Of a stretch of 64,000 bases of DNA, positions 626 to 63,301 are shown in pieces. Every line of letters begins with the position of its first letter. The stretch's first letter is position 1. Source of the DNA: Stegostoma tigrinum (Eukaryota); NCBI RefSeq assembly GCF_030684315.1, contig NC_081397.1:11990421-12054420 (forward strand), read 5' to 3'. The notes beneath the pieces were generated by a model. It had not been told where the DNA came from. It made no database searches and saw only the letters and a program-made list of their open reading frames with translations. The position numbers and the translations under genes are program-made.

Positions 626-1264
626 TCATTTCTTTGCTGCTTTCTTGGTCACTTTCGCTTTGGGCTTGGCCTTCGGTTTCCTCGATTTCGGGGCCGGCTT
701 TGCGGCCTTGGGGCTCTTGGTCTTTATCACCTTCTTCACGGGAGTCTTTTTCTTCGGCGCTGCTTTCTTCGCCGGTTTCTTCGGCGTTGCTGCCTTCTTG
801 CCGCCCGCTTTCTTGCCGGTTGCTTTCTTGGCTGGGGACTTCTTCGCTGCCACCTTCTTGGCCGTTGTTTTCTTCACGGCTGCTTTCTTGGCGGCTGCTG
901 CTGGTCTCGCCTTCTTTCCCACTTTTGCCTTGACTGGATTCTTTGCGAGTTTGAAGGAGCCGGAGACGCCCTGGCCCTTCACCAGAACCAGGGAGCCTTT
1001 CGCCAGGCACCTCTTGGTCGCCATCCTGATCTGTGCATTTTGCTTCTCCACATTGACCCCGCTTCTCTGCAGCGCCTTCTTTATAGTGACCAGAGACGTC
1101 CCCTTCCGATCGCTGTTCTCCCCGACAATCTTCACAATCCGCTCGCCCAACCCGGGACCGGCTGGTTTCTTCCTGGGAGCCGCCGCCTTCTTCTTCTTTG
1201 GAGACTTGGGTTTGGTGCTGCCGGAGGCTGGAGGAGCCGTTTCGGCGGCTGCACTGTCGCTCAT
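626..1264 (-). CDS. H1: Histone H1 (replication-dependent, 212 aa, divergent globular domain)
   Basis: Intronless ORF MSDSAAAETAPPA..., winged-helix end KGQGVSGSFKLAK, K/A/P-rich tail; histone stem-loop just downstream. Confidence 0.96.
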   Translation of the reverse strand: MSDSAAAETAPPASGSTKPKSPKKKKAAAPRKKPAGPGLGERIVKIVGENSDRKGTSLVTIKKALQRSGVNVEKQNAQIRMATKRCLAKGSLVLVKGQGVSGSFKLAKNPVKAKVGKKARPAAAAKKAAVKKTTAKKVAAKKSPAKKATGKKAGGKKAATPKKPAKKAAPKKKTPVKKVIKTKSPKAAKPAPKSRKPKAKPKAKVTKKAAKK

Positions 1265-2149
1265 GTCGGGAACTCTGCGCTGAATCTCTCTCTGTCAAAC
1301 TGAACTGGGTCAGCAATGAAGCTGCTGGTGGCGGCACTGAGCAACTTAAAGGCAGCGAGCGGACGGCGCGGAGACAACCTGCCCTCAGCTCCCTGCTCCT
1401 GCTGCCTGCCTGTCTCTCGGCACAAACTCTCCAATTCCTCTGCCATTCCGCATCTCCAGAGAGCCAGGCTCGATCGTTCCTGACCCTGACACAGGAAGGT
1501 TTGCGGCTGAAAGGTTTTCACTCGAATTGACGGCTCCGTTGTCGATTTTACCGCATTTTGCTGCTGCACTGATCGCGCTGTCTGAGCTGAGCGCTGGCAT
1601 TATCATCATTTTTAGACTGAAATCTTGAAATCAACAAATATATTGCCTTGAATTCTATCTTTAGGGTTTAGTGGAGGAGCAGGGGGATGATTTGAAATGA
1701 AAATCTTTTTGATTTGCACAAGAGAGACGTGGAAATATCATGATATGAGCGGACACACAAGCACATTTCCGTGTGACTATCCCGCCCGCCCTTTTCCTAC
1801 AGTCTCTCTGACTCAATATTCACATCCATACAGTCACAGGGCAGAAATATCTCTAAATGTACCTGTGGGAGGATGTACTTTCTCCCCCTTTCAGCCTGTG
1901 CTCCGGTACCCAGGGAATTAGTTGTAGTTTTTCTCCTCAGTAATTGTGAAACTCTCCGAGGTCTGTGCGCCGGAGATTCGTTCTGCTGCATATTCAGCTG
2001 CAAGAGCCACTCATCTGGTTTGAAGTTACATTGATCACCGAGATCAGTTTTTTTTTCAATTGCAGTGACAATACTCAACATCGTTTCTGGGAATCACACT
2101 CATATAAACGTAAAGAATAGCAACTGGGCAAATAACACCCATCAGCCCT

Positions 2150-3753: not shown

Positions 3754-3897
3754 GCGCATGCGTGATCCTTGCTATGCCCACCCCGAAAAAGCTGCTTGTT
3801 GCTGACCAGAGGAGCGCATGCGTGAAGCTTTCCGCTGAGCCGCTATTGAGGGGCATTGAGTCAGTGAGTGGAAGAGGTTAGTTTGAAACAGGCCGCA
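3754..3897 (+). promoter_or_regulatory. CpG-rich promoter A of the unidentified gene
   Basis: Two NRF1-like GCGCATGCG motifs (3754, 3814) and AP-1 TGAGTCA (3857) upstream of a Kozak ATG; near-identical to 27285-27377. Confidence 0.55.
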
Positions 3898-3961
3898 ATG
3901 GAGAGACCAGCGCCCAGGGAAGCGAGGGAACAGCAGGCTCCTTCCAGCAGCGCATCGAGAT
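3898..3961 (+). CDS. Unidentified gene copy A, exon 1 (MERPAPREAREQQAPSSSASR+1 nt)
   Basis: GCCGCAATGG Kozak context, 64 nt, donor T|GTGAGT, phase 1; coding sequence identical to 27378-27441. Confidence 0.55.
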
Positions 3962-4060
3962 GTGAGTCTGGGACACAGAGTGGGCTCCGAGACCGGCATT
4001 GATTCGGGTTCAGTTCAGGGAGACCCGGGGACTGTTGGTAAGAGGCCGAGCGGAGCAGGA

Positions 4061-4151
4061 TAATAAAATGTGAGGCTGGATGAGCACAGCAGGCCAAGCA
4101 GCATCTCAGGAGCACAAAAGCTGACGTTTCGGGCCGAGACCCTTTATCAGA
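4061..4151 (-). mobile_element. Penelope terminal-repeat insertion with 13-bp target-site duplication; hammerhead core mutated (CTGATAA)
   Basis: GAGCGGAGCAGGA at 4048-4060 and 4152-4164; the insert is absent from the paralogous block at about 27530. Confidence 0.85.
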
Positions 4152-4767
4152 GAGCGGAGCAGGAACTGGTCCCGGAACTTGGAGTGAGCGGCCTGGGGGC
4201 GGGGAGAGAGAGGCCTTTCTCGGGCTGTGTGTGGGCCTGCTGAGGGAGACGCAGCGGCAAGAAGCTGCTGCTGGGGGTCAGGCTTGTAGCTTTTAGTCTT
4301 CTAAACACTGATGGAAATTCATTGTTTGGCTGCTGTTTCACGCTGTTAGTTGGGAGTTTGCATTGAACCGTGAATAAAACAAAGCAGTGTGTGCAAACGG
4401 GCTCATCCCGCGAAGGAGAAACATAGCAGTCACCGGATTAAGAGTTTCCAGCAAAATATTTGAAATCGTGCCTGTTGTGCTTCCCTTCAATAGTTCGTGT
4501 ATTGGGAGCTGGATATTGAACCGTGTAAGCATTCCATTCGTGGATCTGGTTAGCTTTTGTATCTTAGTAAATTGTTTTAGAATTTCGCTAAAAGAAAGAG
4601 GAGGAACCCGGGTTAGTTGTGTAACCGGACCCTTTTCTGTTCGACTCGTTGGCTTTAAAACAAGGAATTATCATGAGTATTCACGAAATTTTCTATTGAT
4701 GAGCTTTGATATTTTGAAACTCGGTAGATGTCGATTTACGGGAGAATTCTCTTTTGTCTTTCTCCAG

Positions 4768-4848
4768 GCAATTATCTGATGTGTCAAGACAATGTCACGT
4801 TTCCGTGGTGCAACACCAAGTGTGACTAGCTGCTCCTACTAACAGCAG
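4768..4848 (+). pseudogene. 82-nt-family exon copy 1, disrupted (81 nt, in-frame TAG)
   Basis: tctccAG|GC...CAGCAG|GTATGT; NYLMCQDNVTFPWCNTKCD*. Confidence 0.6.
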
Positions 4849-7844: not shown

Positions 7845-9380
7845 CTGCAGGAGTGAAACTCCAGACCGAGGACAAAGACTCGGGGCAGGCGGAATTCAGG
7901 CCCGTGGCAGTATTTCGTCAACCAGTCACGAGATCATGCGGGGAGAGGGCCATAGCCACCCCTCTTGAAGATGCAGTTACATCATTAATTTTTAGCTCAG
8001 ATTGGAAAGCGATTGATGACTCTGATTCTCACAGTGGAATACAGTATTATACATTTTGTTGCAGTGATTCAATGCAATGGGATCACTGTGCCTTTCCCCT
8101 TATTCTATACAACGAATCCTTTGAAACTCCTAATTGAAGATGGGCCCTCTATTAGCCAGGCCAAGAGTCGCCACAATCTGATAATGTTTAACAGACAATG
8201 TAATCACCAGGCCATGGGATCTTTCCATGCATCTATTAATTCGCTTTTCAAAGTTACTGGCCGTACACCTTCAGTCATGCCCCAGAATCGCTTACCTATC
8301 AGGCTAGCTTGAATTCTGCTGTCAATTGTATTAATTTTGTGTCTCTATTAAATTCTGTTACTCCTCTTATTTTCCCACTGTCTGAATTATAATAAAACAG
8401 ACAGTTGACTCCTACTAGGAGGCCAGGCAGCATCAGAGTATCAGGAAAGTTGATGCTCCTGAAGAAGAGTCCTGACCCACAACTTAAACTTTCCTGCACC
8501 TCTGATGCTGCCTGGCCTGCTGTGTTCCTCCAGCTCCACATTGTGTTATCTCCAACTGCAGCATTGGCAGGGCTTACTATTGCTGAGTTGATTCTTACGA
8601 CTTGCTGTGAGATTCATGATATTAATTGTATTATAAAGTGAGTTTTATTTAAAGCATTATGCTTACCCTACTCTTAGCTCTGTTGGAGCTAATGAATTGT
8701 GAGCCATTTGCTTCTTATTGGATGCACCAGGCATTCCTTTAGTGACATAGGAAACCTTCTGGTGACTAATTAACTTTCATACCCATGTTTGAATCTTCTC
8801 CCCTAATGCTTATATATAGATTTAGAATTACATTGAAATCCATCTGAAGGATCTTTAACTGGAACCAATTTCTTAATAGCGTGAATATTGCTGCAAGATG
8901 GAGTTATCTGCTGTTTTCATGATTAGCTAGGCCAGCTGTCTTTGGGATGATTGACACCCCTTGTCCTAACTAACTATATTCATCTAATGGGACAACATCC
9001 TTTCATTAAAGGGACTGAAGTCAATTGCTTATCAATTTTAATGAACTTGTTTGATTCTGTAGATTTTTTTATGAGCCATAATCCCATGAGTTCAACTGTT
9101 TGTTTCTTGCAGAATTTACTGTCCCCTTCAATCTTTGTTGCAAACCTTCAAACTGTCTCCAACAAATCTTGCAGCTGTTGTTTGTGCAATGCTCCCTTTT
9201 GCCTCGGAATAACCTCTTCTCCAAAGTACCATTGTGTCTTTGTTAAATGCTGGAGCAGGCTTTCTTCATTCGTTCTGTTTAACCACGTGTCAGTCATAGG
9301 CAGCAGGGCTAGAGGAACAGCTTAGCTGCCAGCCATTCGGTGTCTCTTAGACTTGGGCAGCCCGAACATTGCTCATTCAA
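7845..9380 (-). mobile_element. About 1.5-kb insertion, possibly a decayed retroviral gag-pro relic
   Basis: Interrupts homology to 3425-3800 (7715-7830 resumes at about 9385); only a faint gag-like look in broken minus frames. Confidence 0.3.
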
Positions 9381-10133
9381 TTCTGAGAGAGCTGGAGGCA
9401 GGGAGTTATTAACATGACCTGGGGAAGAGCTCTATTATTGCTCCACAAAGGGCCGACGCCTCAGGTTGAAGCATTCTCTGCCCTTTTCCCCACAGCCCCA
9501 GTTGCTTTCTTCACAGTGGGAGAGAAGGGAGTTAGGGAATGACCCATTGATGTTTGTTGTTGGGAATTATTGGGAAAAGCAGTCCATGCCATTGGTGGCC
9601 CTGCCCCAAATGCTGCTTGTTTGGCTACTGTTTCACACTGTTTATCGTCATTGTGCAAAGAATAGTGGAAACACAGACAAGATGGTGGAAATATAAGAAT
9701 CCTGTAAAGGACGCAGATTGGAGTCAATGGATTATATGTCTCGAGCAAAAACATTTGAAATAGTGTCTGTTGTGCTTCTTTACAACAGTTAGTGTGTTGG
9801 GATCTGGTAACACAAACTGTGTCAATATTACAGCATCCTCAGGTAGCACCTTTAGATGCAGCTGTGCAATTGTTCAGTTTCTGGACCTCGCTGAGTTAGA
9901 CCTGTGTTTGAATTGATGGCTTCAAAGAAAAGGCAGAAGTCTCATGATTTGTGTTATAGTCCAATAGGTTTATTTTAAAATCTCAAGCTTTTGGAGCTCT
10001 GCTGCATTGTCAGGTGAAGTTGAAGAAAAGAAACATCCTAATAATTATCAACTGAATGTACGTTAATCTGTTTGAGATTGTCAAACCTGGCTGATGCTGA
10101 TTTACAGAATGTTTCTCTTCTGTTTTCATCCAG

Positions 10134-10215
10134 GCAAATACATGAAGGACCAAGACAGTGTATCATTTCCTTGGTGCAAAGCCAAGTGTGAGCAGCTGCT
10201 TCTCACAAACAGCAG
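10134..10215 (+). CDS. 82-nt exon copy 2 (KYMKDQDSVSFPWCKAKCEQLLLTNS), phase 1 to 2
   Basis: Pyrimidine tract, catccAG|GC, donor AG|GTATGT, open frame. Confidence 0.55.
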
Positions 10216-12612: not shown

Positions 12613-12694
12613 ACAAACGCTTGAAGGAACAAGGCAATGTATCATTTCTTCAGTACAAAGCCAATTGTGACCAGCTCGTCCTAACAAACAGCAG
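12613..12694 (+). CDS. 82-nt exon copy 3 (KRLKEQGNVSFLQYKANCDQLVLTNS), phase 1 to 2
   Basis: tttttccttcctgcAG|AC, donor AG|GTATGT, open frame. Confidence 0.55.
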
Positions 12695-23218: not shown

Positions 23219-23539
<321 letters not shown>

Positions 23540-24019
23540 TCACTCCAATCGCTGCCGAGTGAGAGCCGAGCTGCCTCGCCTTCCATTTTTATACAGCCCG
23601 CCCCGACCTGACTGAGAAACAGCTGACAGGGAGTGAGAGGATACCCGGGCAGAAAACTGAGTGACACACAGAGAAATGTCCAGCTCCGCCTACAGCTGAC
23701 TGCCGCCCCCAACTGGATCTGGAACTAAACCTTTTCTCCACAAGCGCAGTGAACACAAGGCCCGGCAGAAAACCTGCAGACTCAAACTTCTATTCAAAGA
23801 TAATAAAACCTGGATATTTTAAAAGCAAGATGACAAAGTATGAAGCTGGATGAACACAGCAGGCCAAGCAGCATCTCAGGAGCACAAAAGCTGATATCAC
23901 TGATACAATTTTAAAAGCAGAGATAATGGGAACTGCAGATGCTGGAGAATTCCAAGATAGTAAAATGTGAGGCTGGATGAACACAGCAGGCCAAGCAGCA
24001 TCTCAGGAGCACAAAAGCT

Positions 24020-24047
24020 GACGTTTCGGGCCTGGACCCTTCATCAG
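24020..24047 (-). ncRNA. Minimal hammerhead ribozyme motif
   Basis: CTGATGA-AGGGTCCAGGCCC-GAAACGTC on minus. Confidence 0.75.
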
Positions 24048-25323
24048 AGAGGGGGATGGGGAGAGGGAACTGGAATAAATAGGGAGAGAGGGGGAGGCGG
24101 GCCGAAGATGGAGAGTAAAGAAGATAGGTGGAGAGAGTATAGGTGGGGAGGTAGGAAGGGGATAGGTCAGTCCAGGGAAGACGGACAGGTCAAGGAGGTG
24201 GGATGAGGTGAGTAGGTAGATGGGGGTGCGGATTGGGGTGGGAGGAAGGGATGGGTGAGAGGGAGAACCGGTTAGGGAGGCAGAGGCAGGTTGGACTGGT
24301 TTTGGGATGCAGTGGGTGGGGGGGAAGAGATGGTCTGGTTGTGTGGTGCAGTGGGGGGAGGGGATGAACTGGGCTGGTTTTGGTATGCAGTAGGGGAAGG
24401 GGAGATTTTGAAACTGGTGAAGTCCACATTGATACCATATGGCTGCAGGGTTCCCAAGCGGAATATGAGTTGCTGTTCCTGCAACCTTCGGGTGGCATCA
24501 TTGTGGCAGTGCAGGAGGCCCATGATGGACATGTCATCTAAAGAATGGGAGGGGGAGTGGAAATGGTTTGCGACTGGGAGGTGCAGTTGTTTGTTGCAAA
24601 CTGAGCGGAGGTGTTCTGCAAGGCGGTCTCCAAGCCTCCGCTTGGTTTCCCCAATGTAGAGGAAGCCGCACCGGGTACAGTGGATGCAATATACCACATT
24701 GGCAGATGTGCAGGTGAACCTCTGCTTAATGTGAAATGTCATCTTGGGGCCTGGGATAGGGGTGAGGGAGGAGGTGTGGGCTACACTTGCGTCCCAGTCA
24801 CAAACCATTTCCACTCCCCCTCCCATTCTTTAGATGACATGTCTATCATGGGCCTCCTGCACTGCCACAATGATGCCACCCGAAGGTTGCAGGAACAGCA
24901 ACTCATATTCCACCTGGGAACCCTGCAGCCTAATGGGATCAATGTGGACTTCACCAGTTTCAAAATCTCCCCTTCCCCAACTACATCCCTAAACCAGCCC
25001 AGTTCGTCCCCTCCCCCCACTGCACCACACAACCAGCCCAGCTCTTCCCCCCAACCCACTGCATCCCAAAACCAGTCCAACCTGTCTCTGCCTCCCTAAC
25101 CGGTTCTTCCTCTCACCCATCCCTTCCTCCCACCCCAAGCCGCACCCCCATCTACCTACTAACCTCATCCCACCTCCTTGACCTGTCCGTCTTCCCTGGA
25201 CTGACCTATCCCCTCCGTACTTCCCCACCTATACTCTCTCCACCGATCTTCTTTACTCTCCATCTTCAGCCCGCCTCCCCCTCTCTCCCTATTTATTCCA
25301 GAACCCTCTCCCCATCCCCCTCT

Positions 25324-25351
25324 CTGATGAAGGGTCTAGGCCCGAAACGTC
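25324..25351 (+). ncRNA. Minimal hammerhead ribozyme motif
   Basis: CTGATGA-AGGGTCTAGGCCC-GAAACGTC. Confidence 0.75.
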
Positions 25352-25599
25352 AGCTTTTGTGCTCCTGAGATGCTGCTTGGCCTGCTGTGTTCATCCAGCC
25401 TCACATTTTATTATCTTGGAATTCTCCAGCATCTGCAGTTCCCATTATCTCCAATACCAGAGAGATTCGGGATTGTAGTGGGGGTTGTAGTGATAGACCT
25501 TGCTGTTAGGGTGGATGGAGTCTATATCAAGTCTGATCAGTGTGTGTGAGGGTAAAACTGTGTCACAGAGTCGTGCAGTAAGGCATCCTTTGGCTTGGG

Positions 25600-26840
25600 C
25601 CTCAGCATCATTGTATCCTCCACTGTCAACATCCTGGGAGCTACTATGAAGGACAAATTGAACCGGACTCATCCGATAAATGCAATGGCTACAATAACAG
25701 GGCCAAGGCTATGGATACTGCAGCAAGTAACTTCCCTCCTGATTTCTCAAACCTGTCCAAAATCTCCAACATTCAAGTCAGGAATGTAAAGGTTTCCCCT
25801 CTGTAGCCCCCATTACCTGTATTAGTGCAGCTCCAACTGCACACGGCAAGCAAGGTACTATCCATGAAAAAGCTGCTCCTGGTTAATTGGCACCACATTC
25901 ACAAACATCCACTCTCTCAAATATAAAATTAGATAGCACCTACCAAACCCACAACTACTTCCATCTTGAAAGACAGCAGCAGCAGGTTCATGGGAACTGC
26001 ACGAACTGCAAGATCTTCTCCAAGACACTCACCATCCTGACTTGGAATTATATTGGCCGTTCAGTCTGTGCCAATCCGTGAAAATCCTGCAATTCCCTTA
26101 CTAATGGCAATGTGGGCCGACCTGCAGCTCAGAGATTGCAACGGTTCAGGAAGGCAGTTCACTACCACCTTCTCACGGGCATTTCAGGAGGGTCAATCAA
26201 CGCTCAGACCAGTCAGTGATGTCCACAGCTGGCATTTTTTTCTTTGAAATGTCTGCATTATTCTTGCCCAGTAACAAAGACTGTCCAAATTCTCTTAAAA
26301 CACCCAGTTGTGAAACAGAGCATAGACTGGGTAATCATTTTGCACAACATCTATGTTCTGCTTGCAAAAAAGACCTTGAACTTCCTGTTGCCTGTCACTT
26401 TAATGCACCACCCCGTTTCCAGTCCAACATCTCTGTCTCTGTCTTGCTGTAGAGTTCCATTGAAGCTCAACACAAGCTAGAAGAACAATACCTCATCTTC
26501 CACTTGGGTCCCTGCAGCCCTCCAGACCCAGTATCGAGATCAATATTTTTGGGCCTAAACTCTACCCCTCACAAGGCCTTGTTACCACATACCCTGCCAT
26601 TATCCACCACCCGCTAAGAGTTCCCATTAATTACTATTCAACATCCCAGCCTGATCGTTATCGACTCTGTCCAAGTGTTCTTCTCTCTGTTAGGCTCTAT
26701 CCTAACATTTATTCCAAACCCCATCACACTCCCCTTTTATCAGCATATAAACTGACGTTTTCCCAGCCACCATCAATTCTGCAGAAAGGTCACTGGACGC
26801 AGAATGTTAATTTTGTTTCTTTTTCCTTCTTAGATGCTGC
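25600..26840 (+). mobile_element. Old LINE 3' fragment (about 25600-26245) followed by an old Penelope GIY-YIG fragment
   Basis: LTILTWNYI-type 3' end also at about 2900, 7300 and 55700; ETEHRLGNHFAQHL...PVACHFN. Confidence 0.7.
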
Positions 26841-27284
26841 CATACATAGAACCGCTCCAGGCCATTTGGCCCAACAAGTCCTCAGCACCCGACCCAGACC
26901 TATTCCCCTACCCTTTACTTCTCATGTCTGACCCACAGAACCCAAACATCTCTGGGCACCACGGGCAATTTAGCATAGCCAATAGCATAGCTTTCACACC
27001 TTTGGACTGCGGGAGGAAGCATTCAAAATGATGCTCTAACTTTTTTTCTATATGAAAACAGTAAGGGAGGTGACATGAGCAGAACAAAACATTGGCATAT
27101 AGTTCGTAATTATGCGCCTAATCTACAGCACGCTTCATAGAATCATCATAGAATCCCTACAGTGTGGAAACAGACACTTCAGCCCAACTAAAATTCCACA
27201 CCGACCCACTGAACAGCATCCCCTCCCAGACCCATCGCACCGCCATTTCCCCGCAACCCTGCATTTCCCTTTGTCACACACAAC

Positions 27285-27377
27285 CCAGAGGAGCGCATGC
27301 GTGAGGCCCTCTCCCAGCGCTGCCATTGTGGGGCATTGAGTCAGTGAGTGGAAGAGGTTAGTTTGAAACAGGCCACA
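27285..27377 (+). promoter_or_regulatory. Promoter B of the unidentified gene
   Basis: GCGCATGCG (27293) and TGAGTCA (27337); near-identical to 3806-3897. Confidence 0.55.
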
Positions 27378-27441
27378 ATGGAGAGACCAGCGCCCAGGGA
27401 AGCGAGGGAACAGCAGGCTCCTTCCAGCAGCGCATCGAGAT
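27378..27441 (+). CDS. Unidentified gene copy B, exon 1
   Basis: GCCACAATGG strong Kozak context; MERPAPREAREQQAPSSSASR; donor GTGAGT, phase 1. Confidence 0.6.
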
Positions 27442-28285
27442 GTGAGTCTGGGGCACAGAGGGGGCTCCGAGACCGGCATTGATTCGGGTTCAGTTCAGGG
27501 AGAACCGTGGGCTGTTGGTAAGAGGCGGAGCGGAGCAGGAACTGGTCCCGGAACTTGGAGTGAGCGGCCTGTGGGCAGGGAGAGAGAGGCTTTTCTCGGG
27601 CTGTGTGTGGGCCTGTTGAGGGAGACACAGCGGCAAGAAGCTGCTGCTGGGGGTCAGGCTTGTAGCTTTTAGTCTTCTAAACACTGATGGAAAGCTTTTG
27701 TGCTCCTGAGATGCTGCTTGGCCTGCTGTGTTCATCCAGCCTCACATTTTATTATCTTGGAATCTCCAGCATCTGCAGTTCCCATTATCTCTGGAAATTC
27801 ATTGTTCGGCTTCAATTTCGCGCTGTTTTTGGACATAGTGCCGTGAACAGTGGAAACACAGACTAGAGGCATGTTATAACCCTGAAAAGGACAGTTAATT
27901 GAGTCCCTAGGTTAAATTTCTCACCTGAAATATTTAAAATAGCGCCCTTTGTTCTTCCTTTTCACAGATAGTGTGTTGGGAGCCGGATATTGAACTGTGT
28001 ATGTATGCATGCCTGCTCCTTCGGATAGCCCCATTTATGAAAGTACAGTTGTTGCTCAGTTTCTGGACCTCACTCATGTGATTTCGAATTATTTCAGGAA
28101 AAAAAGTACAATGAGAATCCCCAGAAAAGGAGCAGATCTGGAGAACAGAGAACAAAGCCTCTGGTTCTGTTCAATTTGCTAGTTTTCTTCTTTTAAAAAC
28201 AAACACACGTCCCAATGATTATGAACTTAATGTTATGTTGATTACTTCAATACGGTCAGACTTTATGTATGTTGACTTCCTCCAG

Positions 28286-28367
28286 GCAAATACTTGAAGG
28301 ACCAGGATGATGTTCTATTTCCTCGGTGCAAAGCCAAGTCTGACCAGTTACTGCTAACAATCAGCAG
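28286..28367 (+). CDS. 82-nt exon copy 4 (KYLKDQDDVLFPRCKAKSDQLLLTIS), exon 2 of copy B
   Basis: ttcctccAG|GC, AG|GTATGT, in frame with exon 1. Confidence 0.6.
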
Positions 28368-28669
28368 GTATGTAGCCCATTGACGTTGACACAAGTTTTG
28401 AAGATGGATAGACTGATTGGTCATCCGAAATAGACACTCAGGAACAGCATTAAATCTGCATTGAATAAGGGCATTTTCAAAGTTACAATCAAGACAAACA
28501 ATAGATCATGCTGTAACATAGTTTCAAAGTCATACCTCAGTGAGATGTTAAGTACAGAAATGGGAAGAACCTGTGCACCAAGAGTTACTAAAGTGGATGA
28601 AACATGTTTATATGAAGTTTATCAGTGACTGAGAAGGACAGAATTAATCCTTTGATGAATAATTCTCTC

Positions 28670-28678
28670 CTCCTCTCA

Positions 28679-28737
<59 letters not shown>
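28670..28737. repeat. (CT)n(CA)n microsatellite
   Basis: Direct. Confidence 0.95.
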
Positions 28738-28745
<8 letters not shown>

Positions 28746-29869
28746 AGACCTTCAGTCAGTCAATGTGGAACAACTAAATTGTTTTGTGTTCACTGCAAAT
28801 CATAGAAAATGATAGACTCAAAATGATCTCCACTAACACCCTCAAGTTACAGAACTCTACAGCACAAGAGAAAGGCCCATCAGCCCGTTGCATCCACACC
28901 ATTTTTTTAAAATGGTGAACAACTTTTAAAATCCCAATCAGCCAGCATTCTATTTCCATGAATGTATGGAGGCTGAAGAGGAACTGCTATCCTCACCCTT
29001 ATCATTTCTTCACCTTACAGGAGTAAATATTTCTTTTTTAACATTGTGTATCTCTTTCAATTTTTTGTTTCAATTTTCAACAAAGGGCTTGATGTTCATC
29101 TCGACCTTCCCTACAGCACAATCATGTTAGTCCTCATGGTACGGACAAATGTCAGTGTAATATTAATCCCAGTGTAATATTAATATTAATCGTACAGAGT
29201 CAGTGAATATCTACTGTACCTGAGATGGTTGCAGACATCATGAAGCTAGCACTGCAGCTATTCAAATGCTGATAACTGGAGAACTAATGTCAAATTGGCA
29301 CTAACAGACACTGGCAGTGAGTGGAAGAAGTTCACAATTCCAACAATTAGTGGAAACTAGTATGCAGAATAGAATGTCCCAGTGCAAGCACAGTGGGCTG
29401 AATGGTCTGCTTCCACGCTGCACCTCATCTTGATTTTGATCCTGGTAATGACGTAAATGATATTCTGTTGTATAGAGTATTAGTTTAAAAATATAACATA
29501 GAAATAGACAGAGAGGTGCAAAACAAAATCTTTAAGAAAGAGCACGAACAATGCCCAATACAAAAAAAATGAATCTACGGAAACCTGAAAAAACAAATCC
29601 CGTACTGAGACAGAGAATCAGCATCTGATACGATCGGTATATAAAACCCATACTCAGCACATAAACTGTAAATTGTGTTGTTGATTCAGAATGGTTCTCA
29701 TAGGAAACCAGTCCCATTTATATGACCCCTCCTAGATCCTGCCAACTGATAACGAACTCAGAAGTCTCAAAATGCCGAAGAGATTAATACCCAGCCTCAA
29801 TGTCTTATTAGCTATGTCAGAATATGTTGCATAGTCACAGAGAATATTACTGGCTGCAAGAGAATCAAG

Positions 29870-31530
29870 GCACATTGATACACAACAGTAGAAACTGACA
29901 GATACAGATTGATACCTACACTGACTCATTCACATTCCAGAAACACACAAAAGAAAATTGATGATGAATCACATATTCACATTCAAATAACAGGAACGGA
30001 CATGGACTGATAATTTGACTTGGCCATTCACACAGCAGAAACTGACTGGAGAGATGGGGAAATGCAGCCTCACATTTATGTTGCAGATACTGACAGCAAG
30101 AATAATGTTGTTAGACACAAATTCACAGAATAAAAACTGACTGGTACACATTGATAAATGCATTTGCCTATTCAAAGCCAGAAACTCATAGGTGGAAATT
30201 GATGGGTAAAATCACACATTCCCAAAGCAGAATGATTGTTTGTAATAGTCTTGGTTTCAAATAACTGACGGGGACAGATTGGTAACTTCACTCACCGATG
30301 CACAGAGCAGAAACTGACAGGCATAGAGCAATAACTACACTCATCTGCTGCCGTAGGTACTGATTGACAATGACATGTACATATTCACACAGAAGAAACT
30401 GACAGGTATTCACTGATAACTAAACTCATATATTGACATAACAGAAACTGCAAGTGATAGACTGAGAATTACACAAACATATTCACAAAGCAGAGGCTGA
30501 AAGTGTACAGATTGATAACTACACAAACATATTCACACAGCAGTCTGAGAGGAATAGACTGATTGTTAAACTCACATAGACAGAGCAGAAACTGACAGGC
30601 AGAAATCAGCAGTGAAACTCTCATTCTTTTAGCTGAAACTGACAGGTAGAGATTAATAACTAAATCCTCACATTCACAAACCAGAAACTGACAGGTGCAG
30701 AATAATAATGACATTGACATATGCACATAGCAGAAACTGACATGGACAGAATAAAAATATCATGCCCAGGCTCATTTGGCATCATCTGAACAGTACGTTT
30801 GAATAACTAAATTAATTTTCACAGAACAGAGTTTGCCAATTATGTATTGATATCTATATTCCAAGATTGACAGAGCAGAAACTGACAGGCATAAATTGAT
30901 AACTGAAATCATATTCAAAGAGCAGAACCTGATTGGTACAGATCCAGAACTGCACTCACATATTAACATATCACTTGCTATCAGTTAGTTCCAGCTAACA
31001 TCATTCACATATTGACAAAGAATTAACTGACAGATAAAAATTGACAACTATATTTATATATTCCCAGACCTGAAACCGGCAGGTACAGAGTGGTAAATAC
31101 ACTCATGCATTCACATATCAGACTGACAGGGACAAATTTTAAAACTACATTTCACAGAGCACAAGGACAAGAACAGATTGATCACAGCACTCATGCATTC
31201 ACATATCAGGACCTAACAGGTAAGGATTGATAATTATACTCATGTTTTGAAGTAGCAGATGCTTACAGCTAGAGATTAATTACTGCACTCTCATATGCAC
31301 AGTGCACAAACTGACAGATAACTGATAACTGCACTCAAACATTCACATGGCAGAAACTAATATAAACAGATTGATAATAAGCTCATACTTGTATCGCAGA
31401 AATAGGCAGTGACTAACTACTTCTGTGTGAATATGTAAACATATTTATCAGTCAGTCTCTGTCAGTTTCTACAATGTGGATATATCAGTTTAGTTATCAG
31501 TCTATAGTTGTCAGTTTCTGTGATGTGAAT
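29870..31530 (+). repeat. Largest ~49-bp degenerate minisatellite array; last ~110 bp inverted
   Basis: AGAAACTGACAGG...GATTGATAACT recurs at 49-50 nt spacing (e.g. ATTCACA at 30481 and 30531). Confidence 0.85.
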
Positions 31531-32650
31531 GTGTGAGGGAAGTGCATCGGATGCCATCTGTATGGATTTTAGTAAGGTATTTGACAAAGTGCCACATGGT
31601 AGACTGGTCCAAAAAGTAAGAGCCTCTGGGATACAGGGCAGTATGTTGAATTGTGTCCAAAGATGGCTCAGTAACAGGAAACAAAATGTAGTGGTTGATT
31701 GCTGCCTTTGTGAACAGAAAGCTGTTTCAAGTGGTGCTCAGCATGGCTCAGTGTTGGAACCCCTGCCGTTTGTTTTCTGCGTTGATGATTTGGACTTGAA
31801 TGTGGTGGGCTTATTTGAGAAGTTTGCAGACAACACAAACTTGGCCATGTAGTGGGTAGTGTAGAGGATAATTGTAAGATGCAAAATGGTACAGATAGTT
31901 TAGTGGAGTTGGCAGGAAAGTGGCAGATGGAGTTCAGCTCTGATAAGTGCAAGATAATGCACTTTGGAAGCTCAAACAGTAAATGGAATCGAAAATAATT
32001 GAGAGTATATTGAGAACGGTAGATGAAGTGAGAGATCTGGTGTGCAGGCGCACAGGTCCCTAAAGGTAGCAGTACGGGCATTTAGAATTATAAACAAGGC
32101 ATGTACAATGTTCCCCTTCATTGACAGTGGTATGGAATACAAACGTAGGGATATAACTGTGAAACTGTATCCGGAAATGGTGAGTCTGCAACTGGAGTAT
32201 TGTGTGCAGTTCTGGTCACCATATTACAGGAAGGATGTAATTGCTGTGGAGGGAATGCAGAGGAGATTTACCAGAATGTTGCCAGGGCTGGAGATTGTAG
32301 CTCCGAGGAGAGATTGCAGAGGGTGGAGTTATATTGCTTGGAATAGAGGAGGCTGAGGGGTGTCATGATTGAAGAAAACGAAACTGTGAAAAGAAGAGAC
32401 AGAATAGACAGGAGGAACCTGTTTCCCTTGGAGAAACTGTTCAAAAATCAGAGGTCATTGATTGAAGTGAAGTGGCTGAAGGATCGGAGGATTCTTAAGG
32501 ATTTTTTTTAACAGTATGAAACAGTCTGACCTCTTCCAGCCTTCCAATATTAGGAAGGAAGATGTGCCAGGAACTTTGAGGAAGGTGAAGATAGGTAATT
32601 CCCCTGGGTCTGATGGGATTTATCCAAGGATTCTGTGGGAAGCGAGGGTG
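31530..32650 (+). mobile_element. CR1 LINE reverse-transcriptase fragment
   Basis: MDFSKVFDKVPHGRL; LEYCVQFWSPYYRKD. Confidence 0.92.
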
Positions 32651-32719
32651 GGGCAGGGGGTGGGGTGGGGGCGGGATGGGGGTGGGGGAGTGGGGCAGGG
32701 GGATGCGGGGCAGGGCGGC

Positions 32720-33190
32720 GGTGATGGTGGTTCTCCCCCATTCTTTCTGAAGCCAATGGTCAGTTCTTTAGTTTTTCCAACATTGAGAGAGAGGTCGCCT
32801 TCACTGCACCATGTCATCAAGCCCTCTATCTCCCTTCTGGGTTTTGACTCCTGCTTGTTCCATATGTGTCCCACTATGATGGTGTCATCAGCAAACTTGT
32901 AGATGGTGTTCATTTGGAAATTGGCCCCACAGTGTTGGGTGTACAGTAGGGGCCTGAGGTTGCATCCTTGGCGGGTGGCCTCCAGTGTTGTGTGTTACTG
33001 TAGAGGAGATGCAGTTGTCTGTCTTCACTGATTGCAGTCTATGGGTTAGAAATTTGAGGATCCAGTTGCAGTGGGTGAAGCCGAGACCAAGGTCACAGAG
33101 TTTTGAGATCAGTCTGCACAGGATAACAGTGTTGACTACAGCTCCGCGTTCAATGAGCAGGAGTCTGATGTAGGTGGTTTTGTTGTATAG
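32720..33190 (-). mobile_element. Rex1/Babar-like LINE reverse-transcriptase fragment
   Basis: YKFADDTIIVG...WCSEGDLSLNVGKTKELTIGFRK. Confidence 0.8.
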
Positions 33191-33867
33191 ATGTTCCAGG
33201 GATGAATAATCTCCTACAACCTCTTGAATCAGGCAGAAGATACAGAAGCCCGAACAGGTTCAGGGGCAGCTTCTTCCTGTTCATTATTAAATTGATGAAT
33301 GGACTCTTTAGCCTCAAATAATGATGATCTTGCCAATGTTGATCTCTCCGAGTGCGCACCCTGTGAAATGTAACCTGCATTCCTCTCTGAGTTGTTTTGT
33401 TCTGTACATCCTTGCTGACTGTGATCGGCCTGTACTGCTCGTAAACAGAGCATTTCACTGTCTCTCGCTACATTTGAATTTATTTAAAAAAATTAACAGA
33501 GCATATACTGACAGGTACATATTTGTAACGACACTCACGCATTCAACAAGTGGGAGCTGACAGATATAGATGGATAACGAAACTCACATATCCATATACC
33601 CACTTGCAGTATGTACTCCCACTCATGCAGCTGTATCAGTGTTGGTTAGCTTTTGGATCTCACTCAACCGGGTATTCGAATTTTAAGAAAAAAAAATAGA
33701 CAAGGAGCAGCTCAGGCTAGGAGTAGAATCAGACCGTGGTTCTGTTCAAATAAGTAGCTCGAAACAAACAATCCTAATGAATAATTAACTGAATGTTACA
33801 TTGGCAATATCAATGTGATCAATCTCAACTGATGTTAGTTTACAGGAGGTATTCCTTCTTCCTCCCG

Positions 33868-33949
33868 GCCAATACTTGAAGGACCAGGACAATTTAGTGT
33901 TTCCTCAGTACAAAGCCAATTGTGACCAGCATCTTACAACAACCACCAG
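33868..33949 (+). pseudogene. 82-nt exon copy 5 (QYLKDQDNLVFPQYKANCDQHLTTTT); acceptor AG mutated to CG
   Basis: cctccCG|GC...AG|GTATGT; frame still open. Confidence 0.55.
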
Positions 33950-35559
33950 GTATGTTGCACTGTCAGAGCATAGAATATCCTAGCCACAGTGATAGCAGAT
34001 TCAATCTCACACATTGAATGCAATTTCCAGAGAGATGTGTTCTAACCAAGAGTCAAACACCATTGAGGAAATACCAGTGTATATCTTTTATCTGTACTGT
34101 CACTTCCAGCCACCCAGTTCTAAACAATTTCACTTTGGAGGAATGACAGACTGAATCCTCATCCAAAATACCTACACAGGAACAGCATGAAATCTGCATT
34201 TAGGAAGGGTACTTTCAGTGTTACAGGGAAGTGAACAAATAGATGATACTGTTAGTTTGACCAACCACATGGGAAGTAGATATGGAGTACAGATATTGAA
34301 GCAAACATTTCAGTTAGCAGTAACAGGCAGACAGAATTATTATTTTACTGAATATTTGTCACAATAGTCACAAAAAGACTGACAACGAGAGAATTGTTAA
34401 TATACACTCTCACTCCCTCTCTTGCACCCTCCTCTCTCTCTCTCTCCCTCTCTCTCTCTCTCACTATCAAATATATATACCATTCCAACACACGTTCCAA
34501 CATATAATAGCCATGCAATACCGTATACATTGCAAGCAACAGAAACTGTCACATCTGGAATGATTTCTATTCACAGAGCCATTGTCAGAGAGGCCTGCAG
34601 TCCTTCACATTATTGAGTCTGCACCGAGAATTCTCATCCCATTCATTCAACATTTCATTCACATAAATGTATGATAGCAGCAGAGAAGCTGCCATCCCCA
34701 CCTTTATCGCAACATCATTCTCCTTTTCTTCACCTTTCAGGATTAGAATTTGCTTTGTCTTTTTCAGTCCAGCAAGAAACCTCGAGTACCTCTTTCAAAA
34801 TTAATCTCAATTTTCTATAAAGAGCCTGACATTCCTCCTGGCCCTCCCGAGAATGTATTGCAGAGAAATACCAAGATATCTGAATACAATTTTCACAATA
34901 AATCAGTTTAATCAAGTGGTTACCTTTCAAAGCAGTGCACAAAATAAAAATAGACAAAATTGGTTTGCTTGGTAGGTTTGTGAAACACTCATTTTGTTTC
35001 AAAGCAGAGTTGAACAGTGTTGATTGTTCAATAAATTGAGTTTCACACTTTAAATCTGCTGCACTGCAAGACAGAAAATAAACTTCCTTTTCCTTTCCAC
35101 TTCCCTCCCATAGAACAACACAAGAGTACCAGTAATTGCTTCCACCATCACAGCACAGAGCAGGGTCATGTCCTGTCTACATCAGGGAATAAGTTCCCTG
35201 TTTGTCTTTTCTGTCCAAGCGACACTGTGTGGTCAGGCAGCTGCAATGCAGTTGAATTGTTCACTGCCATTGGCTTTCACAGTTTACACTGATTGCTACT
35301 TTAGCGTTACTCAGAAAAGCATATCACTACACACTGAAAAAGAAACGGATGTTATTCTGACAGTCAATACTTTACATCATTAATCCCCGTTCAACTCTAC
35401 ACTATACAAGTTACAAAGGCCCATTGTGTTTCCAGTCTTGAATCTGAGGAACAGCACAGAGTCCCTTCTGTAGCAGTGTGTTGCCTTTCACTTGCACATG
35501 ATTCCCACAGGCACCAACAATTAAAGATCTTCGGTGGTTTCCCATTCACGACAGGAGAC

Positions 35560-37000
35560 GGGAACTGAGATACAGACTGGCAGCACGAGGGAAAACTCAC
35601 TCACACACAGCCAGTGGATGCTAAAAGGAAAAGAATGAAGTACGGCCTCTCAGTAATTTCCAGATATGAACTGACTCTCAAAATCTCTGATTACACCTGA
35701 GGATATTGGACTATTACAGTGCCCAGTAGTGACAGATAGATTCTACTGCACACTCAACCTCATGCACAATGTAAAAACAAACTGAGACTGAAATGCAATG
35801 CAGTTGAGTGCAATTGAAAAGAGTTTGACAGAGTTTACTACTCCGACACAAACCACAACTGAACATACGAGAATGAGATCCATGTACTCTCCCTGAGACT
35901 GTGGGAAACACATCAAAACTGCCACGATCGTTATGAAAAGCCAGATACCCACAGAACTTATGTCATATTGGCCTTTACAAATAGACGCTGACAATGAGTA
36001 GATGAAGTTCACATTCCTAACAATTACTGCGGAACTGCTGCATAAAAAATTCCCAGTACAGAGACAGTGGGCTGAATGGTCTGCTCCTATGCTGTACCAT
36101 ATCTGTGATTCTGATTTTGGTGAGAAACAAACAGTTTAATCAGTGGTACCACAGATCTCAGGCTGTCTGACCAAATAGGAAATATGTGACCATTTGTCAG
36201 AATGGTTCTCAGAATAAAGCAGTTCCCCTCCTGTTATCACCCCATGTCCTGAACTTCCTCACCCCCCCTCACCTACCACACGGATTGACACTCAACTCAT
36301 AAATCACACAATGCAGAAGAGATTAAGAGCCAGCCTCAACACCCTAACAATAACTATCACAGAGTGATTTGTACAGTCACAGAGAATAATACTGGCCTTC
36401 AGAGACTTAGCCATTTTGATACATGAGGAGAAACTGACACGTACAGATTGATAACTACACCCACTTGTTCGTATTGCAGAAACACACAAATGATGACAAA
36501 ACATTGACTACAATGTAAAGGTGTGACTGTAGTTATCAGTCTCTCTTGGTTTCTGCTAATGTCAGTCATGCATTCGCATTGCAGGAACTGTCAGGGAGAG
36601 ATGAATAACTTCACCCTCATTCTCAAAGCTAAAACGGACATACACAATGATAACTACACTCCCAGTTTCACAGAGCAGAAACTGACAAGTATAGTCTGTT
36701 AACTAGACTCTCCTATTTACAGAGCAGAATCTCACAGGTACATGTTGGGAACAGCACCCACACATTCACCAAGCAGGAACTGACAGGTGTACTTCGATAA
36801 GTACATTTACACACTGACAAGGCAGAAACGGAGAGGCATAGACTGGGAACTCATATTCACACAACAGAAACTGACAGATACAGATTAATGTTGTCACTCT
36901 CAATTCTCAGAGCAAAAACTAACAGATACAGGCTGGTAAATATAGTCATACATTTACATATGAGAAACTGACAAGTATATGTAGATAAATATATTGATTA
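35560..37000 (+). repeat. ~49-bp minisatellite arrays within a duplicated unit (paralog of 29380-31400)
   Basis: Same consensus; 36050-36480 aligns with 29375-29920. Confidence 0.75.
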
Positions 37001-40829: not shown

Positions 40830-41437
40830 TGTGTCCCTCTCTCCGTCCCTCTCTCTGTCCCTCTCTCTGTCCCTCTCTCTGTCCCTCTCTCTGTCCCTCT
40901 TTCTCTGTCCCTCTTTCTCTGTCCCTCTTTCTCTGTCCCTCTTTCTCTGTCCCTCTCTCTCTGTCCCTCTTTCTCTGTCCCTCTTTCTCTGTCCCTCTCT
41001 CTGTCCCTCTCTCTCTGTCCCTCTCTCTCTGTCCCTCTCTCTCTGTCCCTCTCTCTCTGTCCCTCTTTCTCTGTCCCTCTCTCTGTCCCTCTTTCTCTGT
41101 CCCTCTCTCTCTGTCCCTCTTTCTCTGTCCCTCTTTCTCTGTCCCTCTTTCTCTGTCCCTCTTTCTCTGTCCCTCTTTCTCTGTCCCTCTCTCTGTCCCT
41201 CTCTCTCTGTCCCTCTCTCTCTGTCCCTCTCTCTCTGTCCCTCTCTCTCTGTCCCTCTCTCTCTGTCCCTCTTTCTCTGTCCCTCTCTCTGTCCCTCTCT
41301 CTCTGTCCCTCTCTCTCTGTCCCTCTTTCTCTGTCCCTCTTTCTCTGTCCCTCTTTCTCTGTCCCTCTCTCTGTCCCTCTCTCTGTCCCTCTTTCTCTGT
41401 CCCTCTCTCTCTCCCTCTCCCTGTCTCTCTCTCTCTG
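40830..41437. repeat. 10-12 bp pyrimidine-rich tandem repeat (CTCTCTGTCC / CTCTTTCTCTGTCC)n
   Basis: Direct; lies in the intron between the two paralog-B exons. Confidence 0.97.
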
Positions 41438-58397: not shown

Positions 58398-59630
58398 ATG
58401 CCTTACAAACCTTATCGAGTTTTTTGAGGATGTGACTAGGAAGGTTGATGAGGGTCGAGCTGTGGATGTGGTGTATATGGACTTCAGTAAGGCATTTGAT
58501 AAGGTTCCCCATGGAAGGCTCATTCAGAAGGTCAGGAGGAATGGGATACAGGGGAACTTAGCTGCTTGGATACAGAATTGGCTGGCCAACAGAAGACAGC
58601 GAGTGGTAGTAGAAGGAAAAGATTCTGCCTGGAAGTCAGTGGTGAGTGGGGTTCCACAGGGCTCTGTCCTTGGGCCTCTACTGTTTGTAATTTTTATTAA
58701 TGACTTGGACGAGGGAATTGAAGGATGGGTCAGCAAGTTTGCAGACGACACAAAGGTCGGAGGTGTCGTTGACAGTGTAGAGGGCTGTTGTAGGCTGCAG
58801 CGGGACATTGACAGGATGCAGAGATGGGCTGAGAGGTGGCAGATGGAGTTCAACCTGGATAAATGCGAGGTGATGCATTTTGGAAGGTCGAATTTGAAAG
58901 CTGAGTACAGGATTAAGGATAGGATTCTTGGCAGCGTGGAGGAACAGAGGGATCTTGGTGTGCAGATACATAGATCCCTTAAAATGGCCACCCAAGTGGA
59001 CAGGGTTGTTAAGAAAGCATATGGTGTTTTGGCTTTCATTAACAGGGGGATTGAGTTTAAGAGTCGTGAGATCTTGTTGCAGCTCTATAAAACTTTGGTT
59101 AGACCGCACTTGGAATACTGCGTCCAGTTCTGGGCGCCCTATTATAGGAAAGATGTGGATGCTTTGGAGAGGGTTCAGAGGAGGTTTACCAGGATGCTGC
59201 CTGGACTGGAGGGCTTATCTTATGAAGAGAGGTTGACTGAGCTCGGTCTCTTTTCATTGGAGAAAAGGAGGAGGAGAGGGGACCTAATTGAGGTATACAA
59301 GATAATGAGAGGCATAGATAGAGTCGATAGCCAGAGACTATTTCCCAGGGCAGAAATGGCTAGCACGAGGGGTCATAGTTTTAAGCTGGTTGGTGGAAAG
59401 TATAGAGGGGATGTCAGAGGCAGGTTCTTTACGCAGAGAGTTGTGAGAGCATGGAATGCGTTGCCAGCAGCAGTTGTGGAAGCAAGGTCATTGGGGTCAT
59501 TTAAGAGACTGCTGGACATGCATATGGTCACAGAAATTTGAGGGTGCATCCATGAGGATCAATGGTCGGCACAACATTGTGGGCTGAAGGGCCTGTTCTG
59601 TGCTGTACTGTTCTATGTTCTATGTTCTAT
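58398..59630 (+). mobile_element. Young 5'-truncated CR1 LINE with open RT C-terminal frame and (TTCTATG)n tail
   Basis: YMDFSKAFDKVPH, GVPQGSVLGP, FADDTK; splits a tRNA-SINE between its A-box (58344-58355) and B-box (about 59657-59669). Confidence 0.97.
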
Positions 59631-62060: not shown

Positions 62061-63301
62061 ATAGAACATAGAACATAGAACATAGAACAGTACAGCACAG
62101 AACAGGCCCTTCAGCCCACAATGTTGTGCCGACCATTGATCCTCATGTATGCACCCTCAAATTTCTGTGACCATATACATGTCCAGCAGTCTCTTAAATG
62201 ACCCCAATGACCTTGCTTCCACAACTGCTGCTGGCAACGCATCCCATGCTCTCACAACTCTCTGCGTAAAGAACCTGCCTCTGACATCCCCTCTATACTT
62301 TCCACCAACCAGCTTAAAACTATGACCCCTCATGCTAGCCATTTCTGCCCTGGGAAATAGTCTCTGGCTATCAACTCTATGCCTCTCATTATCTTGTATA
62401 CCTCAATTCGGTCCCCTCTCCTCCTCCTTTTCTCCAACGAAAAGAGACCGAGCTCAGTCAACCTCTCTTCATAAGATAAGCCCTCCAGTCCAGGCAGCAT
62501 CCTGGTAAACCTCCTCTGAACCCTCTCCAAAGCATCCACATCTTTCCAAAAATAGGGCACCCAGAACTGGACGCAGTATTCCAAGTGCGGTCTAACCAAA
62601 GTTTTATAGAGCTGCAACAAGATCTCACGACTCTTAAACTCAATCCCCCTGTTAATGAAAGCCAAAACACCATATGCTTTCTTAACAACCCTGTCCACTT
62701 GGGTGGCCATTTTAAGGGATCTATGTATCTGCACACCAAGATCCCTCTGTTCCTCCACGCTGCCAAGAATCCTATCCTTAATCCTGTGCTCAGCTTTCAA
62801 ATTCGACCTTCCAAAATGCATCACCTCGCATTTATCCAGGTTGAACTCCATCTGCCACCTCTCAGCCCATCTCTGCATCCTGTCAATGTCCCGCTGCAGC
62901 CTACAACAGCCCTCTACACTGTCAACGACACCTCCGACCTTTGTGTCGTCTGCAAACTTGCTGACCCATCCTTCAATTCCCTCGTCCAAGTCATTAATAA
63001 AAATTACAAACAGTAGAGGCCCAAGGACAGAGCCCTGTGGAACTCCACTCACCACTGACTTCCAGGCAGAATATTTTCCTTCTACTACCACTCGCTGTCT
63101 TCTGTTGGCCAGCCAATTCTGTATCCAAGCAGCTAAGTTCCCCTGTATCCCATTCGTCCTGACCTTCTGAATGAGCCTACCATGGGGAACCTTATCAAAT
63201 GCCTTACTGAAGTCCATATACACCATATCCACAGCTCGACCCTCAACAACCTTTCTAGTCACATCCTCAAAAAACTCGTTAAGGTTTGTAAGGCATGACC
63301 T
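62061..63301 (-). mobile_element. Young 5'-truncated CR1 LINE, near-identical inverted partner of 58398-59630; 4-nt deletion frameshift near 62375
   Basis: Almost identical translation; (CATAGAA)n at 62061-62090; inserted in an older LINE fragment with an AT duplication. Confidence 0.97.

Follow-up and report, generated by a model that had tools for sequence, protein, structure and literature searches.

What is the short spliced unit at 27285..28367 of the window (the whole 64,000-nucleotide stretch of Stegostoma tigrinum DNA analysed here), inside an array of histone genes? It had been read from the letters alone (hereafter, the sequence-only reading) as a gene for a small protein, present twice. 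We favor a different account, to which we give as a whole a probability of roughly 0.55: the unit is a component of the histone arrays in about 150 copies, likely produces a non-coding RNA, is likely kept for the making of that RNA over its sequence, and would hold the arrays open in cis. The parts of this account differ in strength. That the unit belongs to a spliced non-coding family is, taken alone, highly probable, and that transcription and splicing of the spacers keep the arrays open and unmethylated in cis has, taken alone, slightly less than an even chance.

The copy that raised the question, copy D, is organized as follows.

27145..27285, no strand assigned: interspersed-repeat piece beside the promoter, SINE-like by inferred label, with loose contig ends at 27145 and 27188
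27290..27441, plus strand: promoter and exon 1, donor after 27441, exon end joined to exon 2 in a relative
27293-27301, plus strand: NRF1-like word
27337-27343, plus strand: word that we take to be AP-1-like
27378, plus strand: start codon ATG, opening a 64-nt exon up to 27441
27442..28285, plus strand: intron 1, 844 nt, with GT donor and AG acceptor
After 27487, plus strand: possible alternative donor within intron 1, inferred from database models P0001 and P0009
27518, plus strand: second GT within intron 1, apparently unused
27693-27793: interspersed-repeat fragment of about 100 nt inside intron 1
28286..28367, plus strand: exon 2, 82 nt, AG and GT intact, frame open in this copy
34741..34902, plus strand: candidate last exon (predicted), lying in older duplicated sequence

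The letters bear out the description on which the protein proposal was built, namely the promoter motifs, the ATG at 27378, the 64-nt and 82-nt exons with their splice sites and open frame, the second GT at 27518, and AG acceptors ending at 34740 and 34767. The candidate last exon takes part in none of the 15 joints listed out of 964, in a table dominated by repeats. A TTTGAA-type word at 27362-27368, 16 nt 5′ of the ATG, is retained in most copies and resembles the cell-cycle CHR element. The whole window contains only three NRF1-like words, at 3754, 3814 and 27293; in D-type copies the upstream word of the pair is replaced by a repeat insertion (27145..27285 in the window). The NRF1 label expresses likeness to the site given in the available part of PMC3820735, and NRF1 would bind there: the shark word nearly matches that palindromic site, from which it is one or two positions off. 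As in NRF1-site promoters, it is paired and lies in CpG-rich DNA 5′ of a first exon.

The window lies within an array of replication-dependent histone genes with stem-loops, and the unit occurs in it repeatedly, alongside the following genes.

626-1294, minus strand: histone H1 gene
3754..3961, plus strand: copy A promoter and exon 1, with paired NRF1-like words at 3754 and 3814, ATG at 3898 and donor after 3961
4768..4848, plus strand: copy A exon 2, 81 nt, with intact splice sites and an in-frame stop at 4827-4829
9380..10215, plus strand: copy B, in which promoter flank abuts intron sequence, the promoter core and exon 1 being lost
10134-10215, plus strand: copy B exon 2
12613..12694, plus strand: exon-2 copy C, splice sites intact
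Between 18166 and 23539: H2B and H2A genes (plus strand) and H3 and H4 genes (minus strand)
23219..23530, minus strand: histone H4 gene, about 3.8 kb from copy D, which is oriented away from it
33868..33949, plus strand: exon-2 copy E, 3′ of copy D, acceptor reading CG

Exon 2 is thus present in five copies, each followed by related intron sequence, and an exon-1 donor 22-mer has 151 exact matches in the genome, so that "present twice" falls well short. Copy A, the second member of the proposed pair (3898-4848), does have the splice sites described, but not the same peptide, its exon 2 being 81 nt long with a 1-nt deletion and an in-frame stop. Copies A–C have an H2A or H2B gene downstream on the same strand, whereas copy D runs in the opposite direction from the histone group. 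In copy B, the promoter core and exon 1 are gone (9380-9620), a deletion shared by two copies on contig C62 and, as far as the sequence indicates, apparently produced by microhomology between two 5-nt direct repeats. Between H4 and copy D (23920-25451) lie two inverted copies of a retroelement end, 660 nt long and 96% identical.

The unit is likewise concentrated in histone arrays across the genome. The window sits on the 15.6-Mb histone contig, C56, which carries 99 of the first 100 listed matches to the donor 22-mer. An H4 23-mer has 45 matches, 43 on C56 and two on C62, giving a ratio of modules to H4 genes of about 3 to 1; a first look at the genome had returned 187 candidates for exon 1, 213 for exon 2 and 292 with copy B as the query, with 40 candidates scored per query. 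Among the H4 matches within the listed exon-1 range, 28 of 32 genes have a divergent module 3.2–7.7 kb upstream, the distance of about 3.8 kb seen for copy D being the commonest spacing in the genome. Furthermore, 13 pairs of neighboring modules less than 10 kb apart stand back to back on C56 (4.4–9.9 kb apart), with an H1 gene between them in the fetched cases L095 and L101. The copy counts, the divergent modules near H4 and the fragmentary state of the copies elsewhere argue that the unit is part of the histone repeat.

Two other origins were considered and rejected. A parent gene elsewhere was one; what lies on C18, C43 and C2 consists of isolated fragments. The other was a solo LTR, since copy A compared with copy B resembled an insertion with a 4–5-nt duplication; the ends are not retained in other copies, nor is the short direct repeat, flank homology continues, and the copies are concentrated on the histone contig. 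The fragments off the histone contigs are at L112:300-560 (C18), where exon 1 has a 10-nt deletion, L071:9300-10000 (C43) and L074-L075 (C2). At L087:8500-8830 a short repeat has been inserted into an exon-2 copy and splits it. The histone genes themselves vary too: at L057:4420-6230 an H2B copy has a deletion near its start and an H2A copy reads AAG at its start codon, and from these letters both are likely histone pseudogenes.

Is the unit spliced where the exons were drawn? We turned to contigs from three sequence runs of another species, X1, X2 and X3, which we take to be RNA; X1 and X2 come from two studies. Contigs of these and one further run, laid over 26800-36000 of the window, gave tables dominated by repeats, and the informative target was L012:690-1800, a D-type copy that lacks the intronic repeat. 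One X2 contig of depth 298 leaves out the intron, passing from the end of exon 1 into exon 2 at the predicted GT..AG. In three more contigs of X2 the exon-1 end stands immediately 5′ of exon 2, another X2 contig has a diverged exon-2 start immediately behind exon 1, and one loose end in X1 contains the exon-1/exon-2 junction; among the X3 rows listed, beyond which there are 44 further loose ends, no junction appears. A further X2 contig has the end of exon 2 5′ of exon 2, and tandem exon-2 copies are therefore spliced to each other. Contig depth in X2 is 852 over exon 1, 605 over exon 2 and no more than 72 within the intron, a poor measure of expression, and intron sequence is also covered by contigs of all three runs. 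A processed DNA copy is unlikely to be the source of the junctions, because the exon-1 end always precedes a donor in the genome to which the window belongs (0 matches for the exon-1 end without a donor in a search for an intronless copy).

These contigs, from runs that are probably RNA, confirm for the family in a relative both a spliced transcription unit and the junction proposed from 27441 to 28286, exon 1 of family members being joined to exon 2 at exactly those positions. Splicing thus holds for the family in a related species, and copy D itself may be transcribed and spliced likewise. The sequence-only reading had added the caveat that a second donor at about 27517 would turn the unit into an upstream frame in a 5′ UTR or into a lncRNA. 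A non-coding RNA is indeed the better reading, but not by that route: no listed joint uses the second donor (GT at 27518), which reads GG in X1 and X3 contigs.

Does the spliced RNA encode a protein? The 110 fetched loci and the window yielded 63 distinct exon-2 sequences in 27 clusters, 24 of which were used as subfamilies; the three dropped are the two halves of a repeat-split copy and one row misaligned by 2 nt (acceptor AG, donor GG). A codon model in the proposed frame gives an omega of 0.75 across the 24 subfamilies (2dL 2.27 versus omega = 1), and the five alternative frames give 0.78–1.15. Pooled pairwise dN/dS for exon 2 is 0.98, and 1.03 among the 11 intact subfamilies. The exon-2 range of 0.75–1.0 across the 24 subfamilies is indistinguishable from 1, on tests that compare paralogs over 26 + 21 codons and in which 26 codons cannot exclude an omega of about 0.6–0.7. 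Differences by codon position are 0.235, 0.274 and 0.286 (permutation p 0.21). In-register stops occur in 11 of the 24 subfamilies against 10.7 expected from a neutral simulation scaled to the observed divergence, the stop and splice expectations being simulated from present-day copies without indels and without a CpG effect. Stops or frameshifts interrupt 12 of the 24 subfamilies and, counted by sequence, 26 of 60. The low dN/dS from a hand count between copies B and D disappeared once the 24 subfamilies were compared.

Exon 1 behaves similarly, with 16 non-synonymous against 5 synonymous variant codons and three indels among 52 distinct sequences, two of which remove the ATG. When exons are taken in pairs, 9 of 39 distinct pairs are fully intact (all splice sites and an open 64+82 frame), 18 contain a stop, five are open with a 6-nt deletion and three are open with a splice site lost; three were scored as having no ATG, one of them wrongly (L055 has it), and one was unmapped. 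In one widespread subfamily the stop falls at the junction itself, at codon 22. A dN/dS near 1 together with frameshifts, the pattern that the sequence-only reading had named beforehand as speaking against it, is what we find among paralogs, and with stops at the neutral rate the small-protein gene is not supported.

A family of small proteins in carpet sharks, about 50–70 residues long and with many pseudogenes, would nevertheless account for several observations. Copy D has an open frame, as do 12 of 24 subfamilies (among them one with an in-frame deletion), the remaining two forward exon-2 frames are closed in 23–24 of 24, and the exon-2 peptide appears in ten annotated shark models. Furthermore, the ATG, in a strong context, is retained in 50 of 52 exon-1 sequences and also in whale-shark and bamboo-shark models, a retention that the non-coding reading leaves unexplained. 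We consider such a family highly improbable: omega is 1.03 even in intact copies, the interruptions follow the neutral expectation, and the stop at codon 22 is the form carried by both the deepest spliced X2 contig and the X1 junction. Since the family does not conserve its reading frame, what it produces is likely a non-coding RNA.

The database models fit this reading. Among named sequences, those closest to the exon-2 translation are bamboo-shark and whale-shark models, and the ten, a count that omits one further match of 3071 residues without a matched stretch, come from Chiloscyllium punctatum, C. plagiosum and Rhincodon typus. All are one-member clusters labeled hypothetical or uncharacterized, with differing starts and ends, which speaks against a protein family, as do the lack of a Pfam match for either exon and, as weak evidence, the lack of a match for the exon-1 peptide among longer proteins. 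Two of the ten begin with a recognizable exon-1 start and then leave the exon-1 frame; in the protein alignment seven of the ten sequences were used and three with a frame slip were excluded. The ten look like automatic translations of the RNA family of the unit. If the role in cis fails, the practical use lies in annotation, since these "uncharacterized" shark proteins, including the one with an H2B fusion, probably stem from mis-translation of this RNA family. The presence of models in several species, at least three carpet sharks other than ours, indicates that the family spans carpet sharks.

The H2B-fused model, P0008 of the whale shark (XP_048476956.1), in which an exon-1 start and exon 2 run on into H2B, raises a further possibility, that the exons are far-upstream 5′ leaders spliced into H2B or H2A to give cell-cycle-independent histone transcripts. 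In agreement with this, exon-2 copies often lie 2–6 kb 5′ of a same-strand H2A or H2B gene, as do copies A–C of the window. However, P0008 is a one-member cluster without a methionine at the H2B start, a candidate AG before the H2B start is present in six of nine distinct upstream sequences and absent in three, and copy D faces away from its histone group with no histone gene downstream within the next ~65 kb. As an explanation of the unit we find this very unlikely; on the evidence of the model, a leader role may apply to copies with H2B or H2A downstream of them, and not to copy D.

If the RNA is not translated, what is retained in it? The acceptor AG is present in 24 of 24 exon-2 subfamilies against 16.7 simulated (P 0.007), a retention that may be inflated because the copies were collected with a profile spanning the flanks, and the donor reads GT or GC in 22 of 24 against 18.2 simulated (P 0.22, not significant). 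The pyrimidine tract differs at 0.19 of sites versus 0.26 for exon 2. The native promoter retains two NRF1-like words around a freely varying spacer, and several copies have a changed or missing AP-1-like word. Selection appears to act on the promoter and the acceptor and not on the body of the RNA.

The main rival to this reading, which we judge unlikely, is that the unit is a passenger: a spliced transcript of old origin that became trapped in the histone repeat and multiplied along with it, its CpG-rich start kept uniform by gene conversion and its transcription without function. Indeed, the exon-2 body and the intron behind it drift equally (divergence 0.259 versus 0.258 and 0.297 for the intron blocks), and many copies lack exon 1, a motif, the ATG or the donor. 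Exon 1 and the first 250 nt of the intron are 85–96% identical between units, even where exon 2 is only 72–84% identical, and this uniformity of about 250 nt of intron ignores the exon-1 boundary, so it could come from gene conversion instead of selection. The spacing to H4 would be set by the repeat itself. A passenger does not, however, predict an acceptor AG and pyrimidine tract apparently retained beyond the neutral expectation, two promoter motifs preserved around a free spacer, or modules that outnumber H4 about threefold and recur in the other carpet sharks.

Host genes for snoRNAs of the SNHG type have short non-coding exons and repeated exon-intron units, and in both respects the shark unit is similar. 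Unlike them, it has no Rfam snoRNA: matches above threshold are only the histone stem-loops plus two weak repeat-driven matches. Neither of the two intron blocks that follow exon 2 matches an Rfam family or shows a shared fold (consensus-fold index 0.0 and 0.05), and a snoRNA host gene was rejected.

Returning to an RNA kept for its making, we propose that the NRF1-type, CpG-rich promoter would drive RNA polymerase II through the spacer DNA and that exon 1 would be joined to whichever exon-2 copies come after it. The ATG would open a short frame that is mostly interrupted, and with the frame usually interrupted most transcripts would be substrates of nonsense decay; the RNA would then be marked for decay and the act of making it retained. 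In the least certain step, the passage of polymerase through the spacers and the splicing of the RNA would leave the arrays accessible in cis. If so, a repeated non-coding transcription unit is a built-in element of a vertebrate histone array. A more specific version, that the carpet-shark unit, a dedicated non-histone transcription unit at about three per H4 gene, keeps the arrays open outside S phase and that some copies feed a spliced leader into H2B or H2A, is decidedly unlikely; it would amount to a level of histone-cluster control for which no vertebrate example has been described.

In kind, the unit is probably a splice-constrained lncRNA, unusual as a component of a histone repeat in about 150 copies. 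For human lincRNAs, Schuler et al. (2014, PMC4245815) describe constraint on promoters and splice signals and hypothesize an effect of splicing on local chromatin, and Chen et al. (2016, PMC4739325) describe a class of lncRNAs in which nothing but the act of transcription is conserved. As far as the portions available of these two papers go, the shark unit shares with those RNAs splicing, the lack of coding constraint and of a conserved fold, and probably constraint on the promoter and the splice acceptor, and by analogy the idea of process over product may fit it. The loci in those portions are mammalian, whereas the shark unit exists in about 150 copies in a histone tandem repeat and, unlike them, has a re-duplicated exon spliced to its own copies. 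With a single promoter sequence common to all copies, the hypothesis of splicing as process could be tested at about 150 loci with one guide.

Splicing within a replication-dependent histone cluster has a precedent in mammals, where such genes have spliced, polyadenylated isoforms (Lyons et al., 2016, PMC5100578). In the part of that paper at hand, the isoforms use the histone gene's own promoter and a donor behind the stop codon, whereas the shark unit has a separate promoter and exons outside the histone genes, copy D being directed away from them. Our literature search, with supplements and most subscription papers outside it, found no paper that describes the element, and the accessible part of a shark-genome preprint names the histone cluster only alongside tRNA loci (10.1101/2025.06.08.657570).

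Beyond copy D the window carries other repeats. A GA-rich tandem repeat with units of about 14 nt occupies 40832-41437, and two young LINE fragments, which we take to be CR1-like, form an inverted pair at 58398-59630 and 62068-63296 that is 98% identical over 1233 nt.
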